Shown: positions 46,522 to 57,000, numbered from the stretch's first letter. The stretch: DNA of 64,000 nucleotides from Lama guanicoe (GCA_013239625.1 MU053810.1:2987518-3051517), one strand, 5' to 3'. Translations and numbers: made by a program. Notes: generated from the sequence alone by a model not told the origin.

Positions 46522-48806
46522 CCTTGTCTTTAAGAGCTTAAATGTGGTGCATTATAGATTACATTACATGACAATCAGGAAAGTGACAAGACAGCAGGGT
46601 TCAGTTCAGCTGAAAGAACACTCAACCAGGATGCAGAGATAAAATTACATGGGTGCACCTCAGTGTCGGTGCTATCTTGGGTAGAAAAACTAACTTCTTT
46701 GAGACCCAATGGCCTCATCTATAAAATGAGGGCTTGAACTATGTGATTTCTTTTTTATTTATTTTTTGAAATACGTGATTTCTAAAAGTCTTTTTGATCT
46801 CAGCATTTTGCTTATTCTAGCCACATACTGACTTTGGTTATTTATCCTCACACTGAGACCGTCATCTCATGAGTGATGTTACCTGCCCCATTTCTCCCCC
46901 TACTTTTTTTTTTTCTCTCTCTTCTTTAGTGATTTACTAGCCTCCATCAGACTAGGAAGAATCAGCCTTGTTCCCATTTGCTCTTCTCTGTGGTCCCCCT
47001 GAACAATTCATCTGCTTTGAGAGCCTCTTTCTGGATGAGTCCCAAGTCTATGTCTCTGGCTCTGACACCTCCAAGCTTTAGAGTCACTTCCACCTGCCTA
47101 GAGCCCTACCTTGTCTGGATAAATGATATCGCTGAAAGTCAACCTGTTTAAAATTAAACTCATCTGTTTCCCTAGGTCCACGTCCTTTCCCATGCCTTGA
47201 TTTTCTTGTTATTTCTCTGCTTGGCACCATTCCTTTCTTAGTTTCCTAGGCTTGAAATCTTAAAGGATGTCTTTGACTCCTTTCTCCAGCTTAGTCCTCT
47301 TATAAAATCTAGAGGAAGTCTTTTTGGTTCTAGTTCAGATGGCAACATAGGAAGATCCTGAACTCATGGACACACCAAGTCTATAGCTACATATGGAACA
47401 ATTTCCTCAAAAGAAAAAAATTCCCTAAAAACTAGCTGAGCAACTTTTACACACCGGCCAAATGAGAAAAAAGCAAAAAAAACCCAAACCCCACACTGAA
47501 GTGGGTAGGAGAGGTTGAGACACATTCTTGCCATTAAACCCTACTCCTGGCACATCCAGGAGGGAACTCAAATCCCAGAGCTTCTCCCTGAGGAGCAGAA
47601 GGTTTGAACCCCACATCAGGCACCCCAACTTGTGAGATCTGCGCCTGAGAGATGAGTCTCCGAATCACCTATCATAGAAAACCAGCAAGGTTCACATCCA
47701 GAAGACCCACGGGCTATAGTGAACAGAAAGTCTCTTAAAGGGCTTCTGCACTCAGACTCAGTGGCTCCAGGGACCAATGCCCAGACTTTGTGAAAGAGGC
47801 TTTTTTGCTTGTCTTAAAGCATTGGCCTGAGGGGCAGGCATCTAACTGAAAACACATCCGGGGACCTGCTGGAGAACTCTCTGGGGGCAGAGGTTGGCAG
47901 TCACCATCCTTACACTCTCCCTCTGCCTCACTCCAGCTCACTGGTGTCTCCTAAATAGGAGCTTGTACCCTCCTCTGGCACCCTGATTTTTTTTGCAGCT
48001 GCTGCCAGGAAACATCTGTTAAATTGCCTGGCTATGGTGGCCAGCAGGCCTGACATCTGTACTCCCCCAGCACTGTATATATATTTATATATTTTTTAAA
48101 GCTGCTGCCTGAGGGTCTGACTTCCAATCAGCCTGAATCTAGGCGCTGACTGAGATCCTGTCCTCTGGGACACTGACAGGTCTTGGCACACCCTGAACTA
48201 TTGGGAGCCACTAAAAACAAAATAGGCTACTTGGACAGTCACGTAGGTTTGAGACACAACCAGGGTTGAATGAAGCCACTCCTTAAAGACTGGGACAGGT
48301 GGCTGTTAAATCTAATGCATAGAAAGCAATGCAGAGAGTCAAGAAAATGAAGAGCTAGAAGAATGGTTACAAATGAAAGAACCAGGTAAAACCACAGAAA
48401 AATATTCTATTGTAATGGAGATAAGTGATTTACCTGGTAAAGAGTTCAAAGTAATGGTCATAAAAATGCTCCCTAAACTTGTAATAAGAATGGATGACCA
48501 CAGTGAGAACTTAAACAAAGAAATAGAAAAGTATAAGAAAGTACCAACTAGGAGTCACAGAGCTGGAGTACAAAACCTGCACTGAAAGGTACACTAGAGG
48601 GCTCAACACCATATTAAATGAAGCAGAAGAAAGACAGGGCAGTGGAACTCAACCAATTAAAGCAGCAAAAAGAAAAAAAATGAAAAAGTAAAGATATGGT
48701 AAGAGACTTAAGGGACAACATCAAGTGGACCAACATTTCTACTATAGGAGTCCCAGAAGTAGAAGAGAGAGAGAAAGGAGTAGAAAATTTGTTTGAAGAA
48801 ATAATG

Positions 48807-48913
48807 GCGCTTGCTTCGGCAGCACAAGTACTAAAACTGAAACGATACAGGGAAGACCAGCATGGCCCCTGTGCAAGGAGGACGTGCACATTCGTGAAGC
48901 GTTCCATATTTTT
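48807..48913 (+). pseudogene. RNU6: Full-length U6 snRNA retrocopy, 5' part of a chimera
   Basis: 107 nt 'gcgcttgcttcggcagcacaagtactaaaactgaaacgatacaggg...catggcccctgtgcaagg...ttcgtgaagcgttccatattttt' colinear with U6; several substitutions; upstream is L1 ORF1, not a U6 promoter. Confidence 0.95.
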
Positions 48914-49558
48914 GAGCGTGGGAGGAAAAGCACACAGAGTCAGACCCGGTTTGGATTCTGTCTCCACTCTGGGCCGCTCTACCTTTCTGGGAGAGCATCT
49001 ACATGTTGCTGAGCCTGTTTCCCAAAATAAGATCACAAATCCAGCTGGCAGGTACCAGAGCAGGGATTTGAACCCAAGTCGACCAGATTCCAGGGCTGAT
49101 TTTTCATACTCCACCCTCCTGATTTTTTTTAATGTATCCATTTCATTCATTCATCCATCCACTTAGAAACTGTTTCTGGAGACCTGCTATGCACCAGGCA
49201 CTATTCCAAGCTCCATAGATACAGCAGTGAACAAGGCAGACGAGGCCCTCCCCTTGGGGAAATTATATTCTGAAAGATGGAGACAGACAGTAAACAAATA
49301 AACAAATAGGACAGGAAGTACTCTGACGGAACTGTAATAGAGGTGGATGGAGTTGGAGGTGGATGCCTTAGCTTATGTAGTCAGGGAAGGAGATGACATT
49401 TTTGATGTGACACTGGGCAAAGAGCCTGGAAAATTAATTCAGTTCACTGTGAAATGTGGGGCTATCTCAGACAGGGATGGGTGATGCAGCCCAGCCCTTT
49501 GGGGTATCTGCACCCCAGGTGGGTCAGGGTCTCCCCCTCCGGCTGCCCTGTCTTCCAG
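48914..49558 (+). other. Retained 3' part of an SGSM1 intron (MIR and L2 fragments) ending in a 3' splice site
   Basis: MIR-like 'cagggatttgaacccaagtc', L2-like 'tcattcattcatcc...gacctgctatgcaccaggcact'; ends 'ggctgccctgtcttccag' directly before GTG AAG CAG (VKQ). Confidence 0.8.
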
Positions 49559-50843
49559 GTGAAGCAGATCATGGAGGAGGCCGTCACACGCAAGTGTGCC
49601 CATGAAGACAGCAGCCACATCGCCTCCTTCTGTGCAGCGGTGGAGGCCTGCGTCCTGCATGGACTGCGGAGGCAGGTGGCTGGCTTCCTGTGCAGCAACA
49701 AGATTGCAGCTCTCTTCATGATGGTGGGTGTGAGCTTCCTGCCAGCCGAGGAGCTGAGCTTCAAGGCCCAGGACCTGGAGCAGCTGATCGAGAGTGCACG
49801 AAACCAGATCCAGGGGCTCCAAGAGAATGTGTGGAAGCTGCCAAAACTGCCCAACCTGTCCCCACTCGCCATCAAGCACCTGTGGATCCACACAGCCTTG
49901 TTCAAGAAAGTCCTGGACAAAATTGTGCATTACCTTGTGGAAAACAGCAGCTGAGAACACTGAAGATCAGAGAGGGTGGTCACCTGTCCGGGGACACACA
50001 GCAAAGGAGGGTGCAGTAAGTATTATGAGAAGGAGGCTCTCCTGATGGACCCTGTGGATGGCCCCATACTTGCGTCTTTGTTGGCGGGGCTCTGTGCCCT
50101 GGGGTACACCAAGATGAAAACTTCAGATCACTTCTGGACGGATCCCTCAGCCGATGAGCTGGTCCAGAGGCACCACACCCACAGCTCACACCTGTGGCAG
50201 GACTCACCCACCAAGTGTCCTGTCCTCTGCATCCAGAAGAGGCATTCGAGTGGCAGCATGGAAGACCAGCCGTCTCTCTCCACCTGCGACTATGTGGAGT
50301 CCCTGCATTGGAACTCCCGGGCCACCCTGCTCTATGGAAAAACAATGTTCTGGTTCAGCCGAGGGATGACATGGAGGCTGTGCCAGGGTACCTGTCCCTG
50401 CACCAGGCGGCTGACATCATGACCTTGAAGTGGACACCTAACCAGCTGATGAACGGGTCTGTGGGGGACCTGGAGTATAAGAGTGTCTTCTGGGACTACG
50501 CCATGACCATCCGCCCGGAGATCGTCTACCTGCACTGCCACCAGCAAGTGGACAGTGGCGGGACAGTGGTGTTGGTCAGCCAGGATGGGATCCAGAGACC
50601 GCCTTTCCGCTTCCCCAACGGAGGGCACCTCCTGCAGTTCCTCTCATGCCTGGAGAACGGGCTGCTCCCTCACGGGCAGCTGGACCCACCGCTCTGGTCT
50701 CCGCAGTGGAAGGGCAAAGTATTTCCCAAACCGCGAAAGTGGAGCCCTCAGGGTTCATCCGAGTCCACGTCCTCTGACAAGGAAGACGACGAGGCCACGG
50801 ATTGTGTTCAGGATCATCTACCCTGGCATGCAGTCTGAATTCG

Positions 50844-51020
50844 TGAGAGGTGTCCTGTGCATTGTGGGATGTTGAGCACCATCCCTGGTCTCCTTTCACG
50901 AGTGGCCAAGTAGCAAATCCACCCCCACCACCACGCTGAGTTGTGACAACCGGAAATGTCTCCAGATATTGCCAAGTGGCCTCTGGGGGCAAAACTGCTC
51001 CCGGATGAGAACTGCTGGCT
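50844..51020. mobile_element. MER20 DNA transposon fragment in the extra segment of the SGSM1 retrocopy
   Basis: 'tgtcctgtgcattgtgggatgttgagcaccatccctgg...gttgtgacaaccggaaatgtctccagatattgccaa...tgagaactgctgg'. Confidence 0.8.
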
Positions 51021-53821
51021 TAGGGAAAGAACACATCACTTCTTTCAAGTCTGCCACTGCAATGTGGCCAAGTGACTTGCCCTCTCCAGGGCTGTAGAAT
51101 GGGGATCACAGCACCTCCCACCCAGGATCATATTCTTTAGAGTGGCTTCTGACTCTGGGCAGCACTTCTCCCGTCTCTGTGGGCCCTGCGTGGATGGTGG
51201 TTCCTGCAGGCCGGTCCATGTTAGTGGTGGCCAGGGACAGTCGGTGAGTTCAGACCAAGTGGGACACCACCCTCCCCATATTCTGCCTGAAGCCTCAATC
51301 CCTCATACCCCATGACCTGATAGATGTCTCTGTGAGCAACCTGCCACCCCTATGGCAACCGGCCCCCGGAAATCCTCCTGCTTATCCTGCTCAGAGTGGC
51401 TCGGCTGATGGTGGCTCAGCCAATGGCTGCAACCATGAGAGGGCTCCCTTGAAACTTCTGTGTGACAATATGAAGTACCAGATCCTTTCCAGAGCCTTCC
51501 ATGGATGGCTTGCCTACTGCAGACACTTGTCCACTGTGAGGACCCACCTGTCAGCCCTGGTCAGTCACATGATTGTGTCTCCAAACTTGCCTGTGATGCT
51601 GGACACGGGCTGACGGCCGGGATCTGGGAGCAGTACCTCCAGGACAGCACAAGTTATGAGGAGCAGGAGCTGCTGCGTCTCATCTACTACGGGGGCGTCC
51701 AGCCGGAGATCCGCAACGCCGTGTGGCCCTCCTGGGCCACTACCAGTTCGGGATGACAGAAACAAAGAGGAAGGAGGTGGACAAGCAGATTCATGCCTGC
51801 TACGCACAGACCAAGTCCGAGTGGCTGGGCTGCAAGGCAATTGTGTGTCAGACGGAGTGGGAGTCCCACGCGGCTGCCCTGGCCAAGTGCTCATCAGGGG
51901 CCAGTCTGGACAGCCACCTGCACTGGCTGATGCACCGGGACTCCACCATCAGCAGTGAGTCCTCCCAGAGCTGCAGCTCAGGCCGTCAGAACATCTGCCT
52001 GCACAGTGACTACAGCAGCAGCACACAGGTCTGTGGACGAGGTGGAGCAAGTGGAGATAGAAGGTAGACTAGAGGAGAAACAGCCCAAGATCCCCAGTGG
52101 AAACCTGGTAAGTGGGACCCGTTCCCCAGACTCTGGCCATCCTTCCTCCCACAACTTCTCCTTGGGCCTCTTGGAGCACTCGGAACCCAGCCTGAGCACA
52201 GAAGACAGCATCATGGATGCCCAGAGGCATGCCCCCCTGGTACTGTGACCCAGTAGCAGCGTGGATGACGGGCAGAGCAGCAAGGCCACCACTTCCCGGG
52301 ACGAGGTCCCCCGTGAGGAGCTGGCCGTGCAGGACAGCCTGAAGAGCGACCTCCTCGCCAACGAGAGCATGGGCGAATTCATGTCCATCACTGGCAGCAT
52401 GGACGTGGCTCTACTTGAAAAGGAGGGCACCGGGATGGAGGGCTGGAGGGGCAGTGAGGCGGAGAAGCACAGCCAGGTGGGCAGTGAGGACAACCTCTCA
52501 GAGGAGCCCGAGATGGAAAGTCTCTTCCCTGCCCTGGCTTCTCTGGCTGTGACCACATCTGCCAACAACGAGGCATCCCTGTTGTCTTCCAGTGGTGCCA
52601 GCTACTCCCCGGAGCTGCAGGACCTATACACGGTGAACCTGCACCCATTGAGGGGGACGTGCAAAGGTGTGACCGCAACTACTGGTACTTCATGCCCGCC
52701 AACCTGGAGAAGCTACGGAACATCATGTGCAGGCAGATGGGAATTCCAGACAGAGGGAACTGCTGGGACAAAAGCACAGTGGCACGAATGTGTTCTTTAC
52801 TTGTACAAAGCTATCTCTGGCAGCACACTGAGATCAGCTATGTCCAGGGTATGTGTGACCTCCTGGCTCCACTGCTGGTCATTCTGGATGACGAGGCCCT
52901 CACCTTCAGCTGCTTCACGGAGCTCATGAAGAGGATGAACCAGAACTTCCCCCATGGAGGCACCATGGACACACACTTTGCCAACATGAGGTCACTAATC
53001 CAGATCCTGGACTCAGAGCTCTTTGAATTGATGCATCAGAATGGGGACTACACTCACTTCTACTTCTGCTACCGCTGATTCCTGCTGGATTTCAAGTGAG
53101 AGCTCCTCTACGATGATGTCTTCTCCATCTGGAAGATCATCTGGGCAGCCAGACACATCTCGCCTGCCCACTACGTGCTGTTCATTGCACTGGCGCTGGT
53201 GGAGGTCTACCGTGACATCATCTTGGAGAACAACATGGATTTCACAGACATCATCAAATTTTTTAACGAAATGGCCAAGCGACACAACACCAAACAGGTC
53301 ATGAAGCTGGCCCGGGACCCCGTGTTCAAGGTGCAGACCCTGATTGAGAACAAGTGAGGGCCGCATCACCCAGGCACCATCAGCGGAGCTGCCGCCCACC
53401 TGTCCCGCCCGCTTCTCCTCTTGGCCGCCGGGGAGCGGAGGTCCCGGTGTCTGCCCATGAGCATGGACTTCCGTGCAAAGAGAAAGTACCCCAACTTTAG
53501 CCACTGGACAGGTGGGGTCAAGGGGTTGCCCCTTCAGTTCAGCCTTACATTTTCCTGTTTGACCAAAGATTGCCCAAGTCTGGGATTTCTCTTTTGTGGG
53601 AGTTGGGGGTTGTTGGTGGACCAAGGGAACATCTTCGTTCATGGTCCCCAGAATGGTCTCCTCTCTTTTTCTCTCTCCCATCCCTCCACATTGTCTTGCC
53701 AGATGAGACTTAGGGAGGGAATTTTTTTGGGGAAACTGGGGTAGGAGGGGTCTGCGGGACTCTGTATTCTGAAGGGAGCCTTTGGAGATGTTCCAGAAGA
53801 TGGCTGGAAGGTTGGGTGGGA

Positions 53822-54012
53822 GCATAGCACTGTTGACATTTGGGCTGGGTAATTCTTTTTCAGGGGACGCTGCCCTTGGGCACCGCTGGATTTTTAGCAG
53901 CATCCCTGGACTCTACCTGCTCGATGCCAGTAGCACACTCCTCCCCACCCCTTTGTGACAAGCCAGAACACCTCCAGACGGTGCCAGCCCCATTTGAGAA
54001 CAGCTGGCCTAG
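53822..54012. mobile_element. MER20 in the copied SGSM1 3'UTR
   Basis: 'gcactgttgacatttgggctgggtaattct...tttagcagcatccctggactctac...gatgccagtagcac'. Confidence 0.75.
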
Positions 54013-57000
54013 AGGTTCCCAGTGTATCTCCTTCCCCACTTTCTTTGTACCTGAGCTGCCTGTATCCTGAGATTCCTCCCATTTAGCAAAGGCACATGGA
54101 AGTCCCTCACTCATCTCTCCTGGGGTCTGGAATTCCAATTATTGTATTCTCTCATTTTCTCTCCTCCACCTGGCCCTGGAAGAGACTTTTCTTCTTTTCA
54201 AGAAGGATGTCTGCCTGTGAGAAGTGTCTATAGGCGTGAGATTGGCTTCTATGGGGTCCTGTCCCAACCCCCACTGGGCAGGGCAGAGTCCACACCCCCT
54301 TCCTGTCTTCCTAGGGAGGACCTCGCCTCTCCTTCCACACATTGGGTCTGGTGTTCCAGAAGCTTGGAAGGTGTATGTTGGTCCAAACCACTTGTTCAAG
54401 GAGGCTTTCCCCCAAGTGCCCTTGCTCACTCAGGACAAAGGAGGAAAAGGAGGACAGAGGTTGGCCAGGGTGGGTGTGTGGGGGTCTTCCCTGGGAAAGA
54501 AGCATCAGCTGATGAACTGGCACCAGAGTCACAGCTAAGCCTGGAAACAGTTGCTTCTACGTCTTGACACAAAGGGTCACCCATCCCCGAACAGACCGTA
54601 AGTGAGCTAATCTACCCTGCTGACCTGCCCTCGCAGGAGAGCAGGGCTGCCAGCTCTTCTGTTCTGAGACTGCACTAGAATCAGGAGAAACAGGAGAGTC
54701 AGGGACACATGCTCTTCCCAAGGATGCCAGGTAGGATTTTGGAGAGGGGAGGAGACTGGGAAACTGCACTGAAGCATGTGCAGAAGGGGTGCGTTTGTCC
54801 TCCGCCCTGAGTAACCCAGGAAGGGGAGCGATTCCTGCCCATCATGCTTGTGAAGTCTCTTCCCTCTGACCGAGCACCTTCCGCTACATCCAACCCTTCA
54901 ACTTCCGTCCAAGTGGGGTCTCTTGGGCAGAATGTAAGAGACTAGACGTTCCTTGAGAGTTGCACCTCCTCGCCGTGGTCCCCCAACTTCCCAAGATGGG
55001 AGAAAAATGTATGAAAGTCCTGTCCAGATAAACGTTTATTTTGCCACTCAGTTGTTCACTACAGAGGACGTTATTTTGGCAAGACCCAGGACCTTCCGAT
55101 TCTTACTTATTTTTTAACAGACCAGTCTGAAAAGTACAGCATAAGATCTCTCCTCTGCCTTTTCTCGTGGTGTTCCGGAGAGCACTGTGGTTGTGATTTG
55201 GAATAACTCATATTTATTCTGCTTGGTGTGTTTATTTGGGTCTCTGGGCGGGTCTCCATGCATCGTGTGTGTCCTTGTGTCCCAGCATCAAACGTGTGGA
55301 AGTCACTCCATCTGTGGAGTGCCTTCTCTTTCTCAGCGTTGCCAACATATCTTGTAACTGTTTACAGAAGAGTCATGTCTATATATAGAGAATATATATA
55401 TTACATATATATAATATATATGTTATATATATTATAGATATATAAACAGAAAAAAAAGAAATAATGGCTGAAAACATCCCTAACATGGGGAAGGAAATGC
55501 AGAGAGTTCCAAATAAGATGAACCCAAAGAGACTCACACCAAGACACATAATTAAAATGTCAAAAGTTGAAGACAAGGAGAGAATCTTAAAAGCAGCATA
55601 AAGAAAATGACTTCTTACATACAAAGGAACCCGCATAAGATTATCTGCAGATTTCTCAGCAGAAATGTTACCAGCCAGAAGGGAGTGGCATGATACATTT
55701 AAAATACCGAAAGAAAAAATCTTCCAACCAGAAATACTCTACCCAGCAAAGTTATCGTTCAGTGTAGAAAAAGAGGTTTCCAGACAAGCAAAAGCTAATG
55801 GAGTTCTTCATAACTAAACCAATCTTTCAAGAAATGTTAAAGGGACTTCTTTAAGCTGAAAAGAAATGGTACTAATTAGCAATAGGAAAACATATGAAAG
55901 TATAAACTTCACTGGTAAACCTAAATAAATAATAAAATTGAGAAAAATCTAATGTAAAGGTGGTGGATTCATCACTTATAAAGCTGGTATGAAGGTTAAA
56001 AAACAAAAGTAGTAAAATATCTATGAAAACAACAATTACACGAGATAAAAAGATATAAAATGTGTCACCAAAAACATAAAACTTGGTAGGGAGTGTAAAA
56101 ATACAGAGCTTTAGAATGCATTCAAACTTAAATGGTTAATAATTTAAAACAGACTGTTACAAATATAAGTTGTTATATGTAAGCCTCATGGTAACCAAAG
56201 AACAAAAAAACCACAGAGCAAAAAACTCATAGCTTTTGCTATATTCAAAAGAGGGGAAAGAAATCTAAGCATACCACTAAAGAAAGTCATCAAACCACAA
56301 AAGAAGAAAGGAACAGAAAGGAACTATAAAACAATCAGGAAACAATGAACAAAATGGCAATAAGTACATATTTATCAATAATTGCTTTAAACGTAAATGA
56401 ACTAAATTCTCCAATCAAAAGACACAGAGTGGCTGAATTATTAAAAAAATATTAAAACCCCTCTGCCTACAGAGATGTAAGAACACACACAGACTGAAAG
56501 TTAAGGGATGGGGAAAAAATATTCCATGGAAATGAAAACCAAAAGACAGTTGGAGTGGCTATACTTACATCAGACAAAATTGACATTTAAATAAAGATTG
56601 TAATTAGAAACAAAGAAGGACATTACATAATGCTAAGGGGTCAACCCAACAAGAAAATACATTTATAAATATTTATGTGCCCAACATAGAATATCTAAAT
56701 ATATAAAGTAAATGTTAACAGACCTAAAGGGAGAAATAGCAATACAATAATAGTAGGGCACTTCAATACCCCACTTTCATCCATGGATAGATCATTCAGA
56801 CATAAAAATCAATAAATCAATTAGCCTTAAGAAAAAAAATTAGCCTTAAACAACACATTAGACAAAATGGATTTAGCAGATGGATACAGAACTTTCCATC
56901 CAAAAGCAGCAGAACACATAAAAAACATCTCCCAGACTTCAGACAATACTATAGAGCTACTGTCATCAAGACATCATGGTATTGGTACCAGAACAACACA

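Follow-up and report, generated by a model that had tools for sequence, protein, structure and literature searches.

A U6 small nuclear RNA joined to an intron-starting SGSM1 retrocopy inside an old L1 of Lama guanicoe

What kind of history leaves a U6 small nuclear RNA (snRNA) copy joined, with nothing in between, to a copy of an SGSM1 transcript that begins inside an intron, the whole lying in the middle of an L1 open reading frame (ORF)? This arrangement occupies positions 48796-55468 of a 64,000-nucleotide (nt) stretch of the Lama guanicoe genome (GCA_013239625.1 MU053810.1:2987518-3051517), hereafter the window, which lies on contig C1724 of the 2.05-Gb assembly that we searched. An earlier note, made by reading the window without any database search, had described it as one chimeric retrocopy, a complete U6 fused to a partially spliced SGSM1 RNA. 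Our findings indicate that the two parts did arrive together, as a single chimeric copy inserted into ORF1 of an old L1. We put the probability of this at about 0.86, a figure that applies to the event having been single and not to the route by which the two RNAs were joined.

A single insertion in an L1 open reading frame

The 13-mer AAGAAATAATGGC is present twice in the window, at 48796-48808 and at 55456-55468, and both matches are exact. By chance, 0.16 matches would be expected when up to one mismatch is tolerated, and two matches were reached in 1 of 100 shuffles. The sequences to the left and right of the putative insertion were then aligned separately, and never joined, to 11 other L1 copies from the same genome. 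The left flank, from the ORF1 region of the host L1 (48400-48795; this and all features below lie on the plus strand of the window), aligned to all 11 copies as far as the insertion point, with 69-76% identity. The right flank (55469-55860), also from the ORF1 region, aligned to L1 copies as well and carries a match to Pfam Transposase_22 (31.8 bits, in 55446-55601). In every copy in which both flank alignments reach the insertion site (5/5), they overlap by exactly 13 bp; the other six of the 11 copies are uninformative, with a right-flank alignment that begins 36-45 nt in or is fragmentary. Since the two flanks abut on L1 copies with this 13-bp overlap, the 6,647 nt between the 13-mers are one insertion with a 13-bp target-site duplication, as had been proposed. 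On the left, the interrupted L1 open frame ends in ...GVENLFEEIMA, and on the right it starts with EIMAENIPNMGKE; a Pfam search of the 41-residue left piece of L1 returned no match.

Composition of the copied RNA

The 5' end of the insert is a sense-oriented copy of U6 (48807-48913) that spans U6 positions 1/3-107 and ends in TTTTT. It represents the sole Rfam family found in 47000-57000 (RF00026), scoring 88.4 bits against a gathering cut-off of 44 and matching model positions 1-105 of 105 without truncation. Six identical, best-scoring U6 copies in the genome served as our canonical U6. Relative to this sequence, the window copy aligns over positions 3-107 with 13 mismatches and has the same five-T end. 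The final two bases of the 5' duplication (GC) occupy the place of U6 positions 1-2 (GT), giving an overlap of 1-2 nt at the 5' junction; as a small correction to the first description, U6 is thus complete to within 0-2 nt.

From its TTTTT, U6 runs directly and on the same strand into GAGCGTGG, so that the join in the retrocopy reads ...CCATATTTTT|GAGCGTGGGAGG. The next 645 nt (48914-49558) map over their full length to one other place in the genome, C1858:3805478-3804826 on the minus strand, with 91% identity; the remaining seven genomic matches of this stretch are short repeat pieces at 69-84%. The alignment to this parental locus continues unbroken through ...TCTTCCAG|GTGAAGCAG (in the window, ...tcttccag|gtgaagcag) into the SGSM1 exon that encodes VKQIMEE. 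The 645 nt are the end of the intron that precedes this exon, which is where the earlier note had predicted that they would map. In camel isoform P0002 (1149 amino acids) 21 residues precede VKQIMEE, and the retained piece is therefore the 3' end of intron 1 by that isoform.

The VKQIMEE exon (76 nt, 49559-49634) is the first SGSM1 coding exon present in the insert, and the RUN domain begins in it. It is followed by a degenerate, spliced SGSM1 coding region consisting of blocks 2-27 and extending to the stop codon (49635-53357), with Pfam matches to RUN and RabGAP-TBC. In total, the insert corresponds to 27 collinear blocks on C1858, from 3805479 to 3753289, at 88-97% identity. These meet at 26 exon-exon junctions, for which the parent has AG acceptors in 26 of 26 cases and GT donors in 25 of 26; junctions 8, 19 and 26 were placed by hand, because the retrocopy has small deletions there that displace the automatically called position. 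A script that joined the 23 canonical parental blocks yielded an intact ORF of 1073 codons that ends in a stop. A protein search with the large exon found 619 proteins at E<=1e-20, the best among the matches listed being camel proteins at 98%. Our counts of SGSM1 proteins rest on the 120 listed of these 619, almost all of which are named small G protein signaling modulator 1 or SGSM1. The parent gene has the repeats of the insert in collinear positions, and they are thus cargo, which bears out the explanation first given for them.

At the other end, the SGSM1 3' untranslated region (UTR; 53358-55449) extends to the parental poly(A) site at 89% identity to C1858:3755418-3753289. Both parent and retrocopy end in ATATAAACAG, after which the parent continues with AAATGTG and the retrocopy with eight A. 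This 3' end, located at a natural poly(A) site, is genuine. The A8 tail originally described is indeed present as a run, but direct reading assigns only six A (55450-55455) to the remnant poly(A) tail, the other two being the first two bases of the 3' duplication. Just before the poly(A) site, a TA-rich microsatellite of the retrocopy (window 55380-55449) exceeds its parental counterpart in length by ~45 nt. We also found a 417-bp contig (G000:C42941:1-417) that is 100% identical to window 54987-55403, in the 3' end region of the retrocopy. Rather than a second copy, this contig is probably a haplotig or a remnant of the assembly process.

The copied RNA had been described as otherwise spliced SGSM1 messenger RNA (mRNA). 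The 26 spliced junctions and the 3'UTR agree with this, but the exon content does not. Three exons are unannotated, each found in 0 of the 120 SGSM1 proteins listed. Block 4 (66 nt, 49951-50016; C1858:3796768-3796703, with an AG acceptor) adds a TGA right behind ...VENSS, so that the ORF stops at 49954. Block 12 (299 nt, 50844-51142; C1858:3785433-3785135, with AG and GT) consists mostly of interspersed repeat, and its positions 50847-51026 have many matches of 73-76% elsewhere in the genome. Block 22 (78 nt, 52733-52810; C1858:3762930-3762853, with AG and GT) is in frame and lies inside the TBC region. A fourth additional exon, block 13 (51143-51305; 165 nt or 55 amino acids in the parent), is a known alternative coding exon that occurs in 68 of the 120 proteins listed, for instance as residues 431-485 of P0002. 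The TGA of block 4 and the three exons absent from the listed proteins indicate that the template was an unproductive isoform. The partner of U6 was thus an unproductive SGSM1 RNA, probably an immature one.

Two smaller differences from the parent concern individual exons. The one donor that is not GT in the present-day parent is that of block 4 (GCAC|ATGAGC; C1858:3796703), and the parent may have lost the use of this cryptic exon after copying. At the start of the large exon (52028/52029) the retrocopy has lost 8 nt between direct GTCT repeats, a loss more readily explained by slippage at a later time than by the use of another acceptor.

Decay of the parts and origin of the join

The SGSM1 part of the insert has decayed neutrally since copying. 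Outside CpG sites, retrocopy and parent differ by 5.9% in the intron tail, 5.8% in the 3'UTR, 5.2% in the four extra exons and 3.8% in the canonical coding sequence. By codon position, non-CpG differences amount to 2.6%, 3.4% and 5.6% at positions 1, 2 and 3, respectively. This codon-position pattern is that of a copy decaying neutrally, with ~3.0% change on its own lineage, beside a constrained parent. Read in the parental frame, the retrocopy has 8 frameshifting deletions and 3 new stops. Mammalian sequences change at 1-2×10^-9 substitutions per site per year, and at this rate the decay suggests an insertion age of ~15-30 million years. In one Camelus ferus SGSM1 model (P0005), a patch of ~30 residues (window ~52350-52440) carries the substitutions of the retrocopy at 6 of 6 consecutive discriminating sites and is flanked by parent-like sites. 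This patch hints either that Old World camels carry this retrocopy too and that it found its way into the gene model, or that gene conversion took place.

We propose that one L1-driven event of target-primed reverse transcription placed a single chimeric copy into ORF1 of the old L1. What was copied was a full U6 ending in five U, head-to-tail with a polyadenylated SGSM1 transcript whose 5' end lay inside intron 1, 645 nt upstream of the second coding exon, and from which 26 downstream introns had been removed; after insertion, the copy decayed neutrally. Of this account, the insertion as one unit, the nature of its two parts, the unbroken tail of the intron, the pattern of splicing, the natural 3' end and the neutral decay are shown by the sequences. 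A single event is well supported. For a history in two steps, another insertion would have had to hit the very end of U6 without leaving a duplication. Several observations nonetheless weigh against our account. The L1 endonuclease consensus is TTTT/AA, and the nicked (bottom) strand at this target, TTTCTT/CA, is T-rich and fits it in part only. The A-tail is short, at 6-8 nt. SGSM1 exon 1 was not reported by the whole-genome protein search, and a tblastn search of the 33.5 kb that remain upstream before the contig ends, with residues 1-24 of P0002 as the query, yielded chance-level matches only (best E 0.6). With exon 1 not found upstream on the contig, the number given to the intron rests on the camel isoform, and intron 1 is either longer than ~35 kb or interrupted by a gap. 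U6 itself shows 9 differences from canonical U6 at 89 non-CpG sites (10.1%), compared with the ~3.0% expected from the SGSM1 part (P≈0.0014). Lastly, the DNA cannot separate ligation, template switching and an intronic transcription start as the source of the join, since a 5'-hydroxyl (5'-OH) leaves no mark in it, and neither does the order in which joining and reverse transcription took place.

The non-CpG excess in U6, ~3.3 times the expectation from the age of the SGSM1 part, goes some way towards the unequal divergence that the earlier note had named as evidence against a common origin. It would suit a history of two insertions, in which an older, A-tailed U6 pseudogene in the L1 was later entered by a 5'-truncated SGSM1 retrocopy that landed exactly between the U6 TTTTT and the A-tail, TTTTT/AAAA being a preferred nick site of the L1 endonuclease. 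Such a landing should have left its own duplication, starting with an A-run, between U6 and the intron tail, but direct reading of the join found neither an A-run nor a second duplication between the U6 TTTTT and the intron sequence. The other clocks at the locus also point to the younger age. U6 has decayed at 4 of 16 CpG sites (25%), compared with ~22% expected on one lineage, a value derived from 82/211 sites in the neutral SGSM1 parts; were U6 3.3 times older, 56% would be predicted (P=0.013). Identity of the duplication at 13 of 13 positions has a probability of 0.28 at the younger age versus 0.03 at the older. We therefore regard two insertions as highly improbable. As a single age suits both the CpG decay and the identity of the duplication, we read the U6 excess as pre-existing in the U6 RNA that was copied or as arising during copying; the excess as such remains unexplained. 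We also considered a variant U6 subfamily as its source. The genomic copies nearest to the window U6 are 88-90% identical to it and include canonical U6, and the best genomic copy has 5 of the 14 differences of the window U6, 2 of these 5 being at CpG. The paired U6 variant was absent among the 100 listed of 178 genomic motif matches. On these copies we rejected a variant subfamily as the explanation, although a source gene that has since been lost might still account for the excess.

At the breakpoint the parental intron reads ...GTTGACTGAGT|GAGCGTGGTAGG (...CTGAGT|GAGCGTGG). The overlap at the U6/intron join is 0-1 nt, in that the fifth T of U6 could equally be the parental T, and no bases were added. 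An overlap of at most 1 nt without extra bases is predicted by both ligation and template switching, and hence the join cannot separate them; the check for T-microhomology versus a blunt join, as originally suggested, could be made but favours neither mechanism. The parental bases across the breakpoint are continuous old repeat, with a microsatellite also upstream and no U6, which rules out that U6 was already present in the parental intron. A 21-nt string spanning the junction had 0 matches in metagenome contigs.

How U6 and SGSM1 became joined can only be inferred, and we lean slightly, at somewhat less than even odds, towards ligation by RtcB. By this route the pre-mRNA would have been cut inside intron 1, leaving a 5'-OH and an intron tail orphaned from its 5' splice site; RtcB would have ligated mature U6, through its 2',3'-cyclic phosphate, to this 5'-OH, and the whole chimera would then have been reverse-transcribed. 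We lean this way because a cut that orphans the intron tail from its 5' splice site accounts for the survival of only this piece of intron in an RNA that is spliced elsewhere. The precise join and the end of U6 in exactly five T are also in line with ligation. In Moldovan et al. (2019, PMC6789731) the major form of U6 is described as having five terminal U and a 2',3'-cyclic phosphate, and RtcB as able to ligate U6 to L1 and non-L1 RNAs with a 5'-OH independently of retrotransposition. Template switching is a route that we hold to be only slightly less probable. Here the reverse transcriptase would have been primed on the poly(A) of an SGSM1 RNA retaining intron 1, copied 6.5 kb and, having reached 645 nt into the intron, switched to the U6 3' end and continued to the U6 5' end. 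Chimeras of the U/pseudogene type, as described by Doucet et al. (2015, PMC4476161), are classically recognised by a full-length sense U6 and a partner that begins at an arbitrary internal point, and both are seen here. The possible 1-nt T overlap at the join would agree with a switch, but is also the chance expectation. The premature-stop exon and the intron tail suit an immature or nuclear RNA; this route nevertheless requires a polyadenylated RNA that was spliced at 26 junctions yet kept an intron probably >35 kb long.

The third possibility, which we consider unlikely, dispenses with a broken or unspliced pre-mRNA. A cryptic promoter 645 nt ahead of exon 2 would have given rise to a capped SGSM1 RNA in which the intron tail was an extension of that exon, and the enzyme would have reached the true 5' end of this RNA and jumped to U6. 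End-to-end template jumping is a property of the reverse transcriptases of non-LTR (long terminal repeat) elements. Within window 49480-49558 the intron tail contains an ATG that is in the reading frame of exon 2. The protein of 2 of the 120 listed SGSM1 models, both from camel (P0001 and P0003), begins there (MQPSPSG...), which is the one hint of an intronic first exon. These models look like extensions to the first ATG, however, and are probably ab initio artefacts. Furthermore, there is no CpG island at the parental breakpoint (GC 0.34-0.41, CpG observed/expected 0.29-0.36), the parent consists of old repeat and microsatellite sequence upstream of it, and the join lacks the extra untemplated base that a cap often leaves. 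The intron tail also diverges at the neutral rate, as given above. In naming a nuclear pre-mRNA or splicing intermediate as the partner, the earlier note went further than the DNA can take us, an intronic start being open too.

One feature of the parental intron at the breakpoint deserves mention as a post hoc observation on a single case. The breakpoint lies 1-2 nt inside a sequence that resembles a 5' splice site, CTGA|GTGAGC (C1858 ~3805478-3805485; join 48913/48914), the SGSM1 part of the retrocopy beginning with either GAGC or TGAGC. It is conceivable, but in our view very improbable, that U6 was engaged on this cryptic 5' splice site, as part of a stalled or discarded spliceosome on an unproductive SGSM1 pre-mRNA, when it was joined or when the reverse transcriptase was blocked and switched. 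If true, U6 chimeras would record proximity to the spliceosome and not chance encounters. Two other explanations for the position of the breakpoint were tried and rejected. An alternative 3' splice site could use an AG located 1 nt upstream, but has only a weak pyrimidine tract and would lead one to expect an upstream exon in the place of U6. A stop of the reverse transcriptase at a lariat branch point is unsupported, with an offset of 2 nt and without a suitable downstream 3' splice site.

Relation to known chimeras and meaning

With 645 nt of intron at its 5' end, the copy differs from a classical processed pseudogene, which contains no intron sequence. Semi-processed retrocopies, which retain introns, are a known class, and the copy resembles them in that part of one intron was kept and the others were removed. 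It departs from them in that only the 3' 645 nt of the intron are present, at the very 5' end, and are headed by U6 instead of by upstream exons.

The fusion of U6 to trans-mobilised cellular RNAs is likewise a described class, and in the relevant passages of Doucet et al. (2015, PMC4476161) U/pseudogene chimeras are treated as products of template switching, with U6/processed-pseudogene chimeras attributed there to Buzdin et al. (2003). Like the chimeras in those passages (PMC4476161), the present copy has a full sense U6 whose oligo-T end sits on the 5' end of a trans-mobilised RNA, a poly(A) end and one duplication around the unit. Unlike them, it has a partner that starts in an intron, includes three unannotated exons and is very long (6.5 kb), and its U6 is unexpectedly diverged. 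With the U6/L1 chimeric pseudogenes, as characterised in parts of Moldovan et al. (2019, PMC6789731), it shares a five-T U6 end placed precisely on a 5'-shortened RNA, as well as the same two candidate mechanisms. The partner in our case is the transcript of a cellular gene, however, and L1 is only the target and the presumed source of the enzyme. Full-text searches, limited to the papers in one library, listed no description of a U6 chimera with an intron-starting partner, and SGSM1 is mentioned in none of the 10 papers that a further search listed; such cases may be tabulated outside that set, in Buzdin et al. (2002, 2003) or in supplements.

By-products of L1 activity of this kind are known, and the U6-SGSM1 copy is a well-preserved one; taken alone, it leaves the mechanism of fusion undecided. 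The way in which L1 enzymes pick up other RNAs or join them is recorded in nature mainly by U6 chimeras, and two mechanisms are still debated. As a fossil of this process the present copy is unusually complete, with both ends intact, an intact parent for comparison, 26 junctions and a preserved intron tail. It thus offers a clean case for surveying where the partners of U6 begin, whether in introns or exons and whether or not near motifs that resemble splice sites, and a dated marker for camelid phylogeny.

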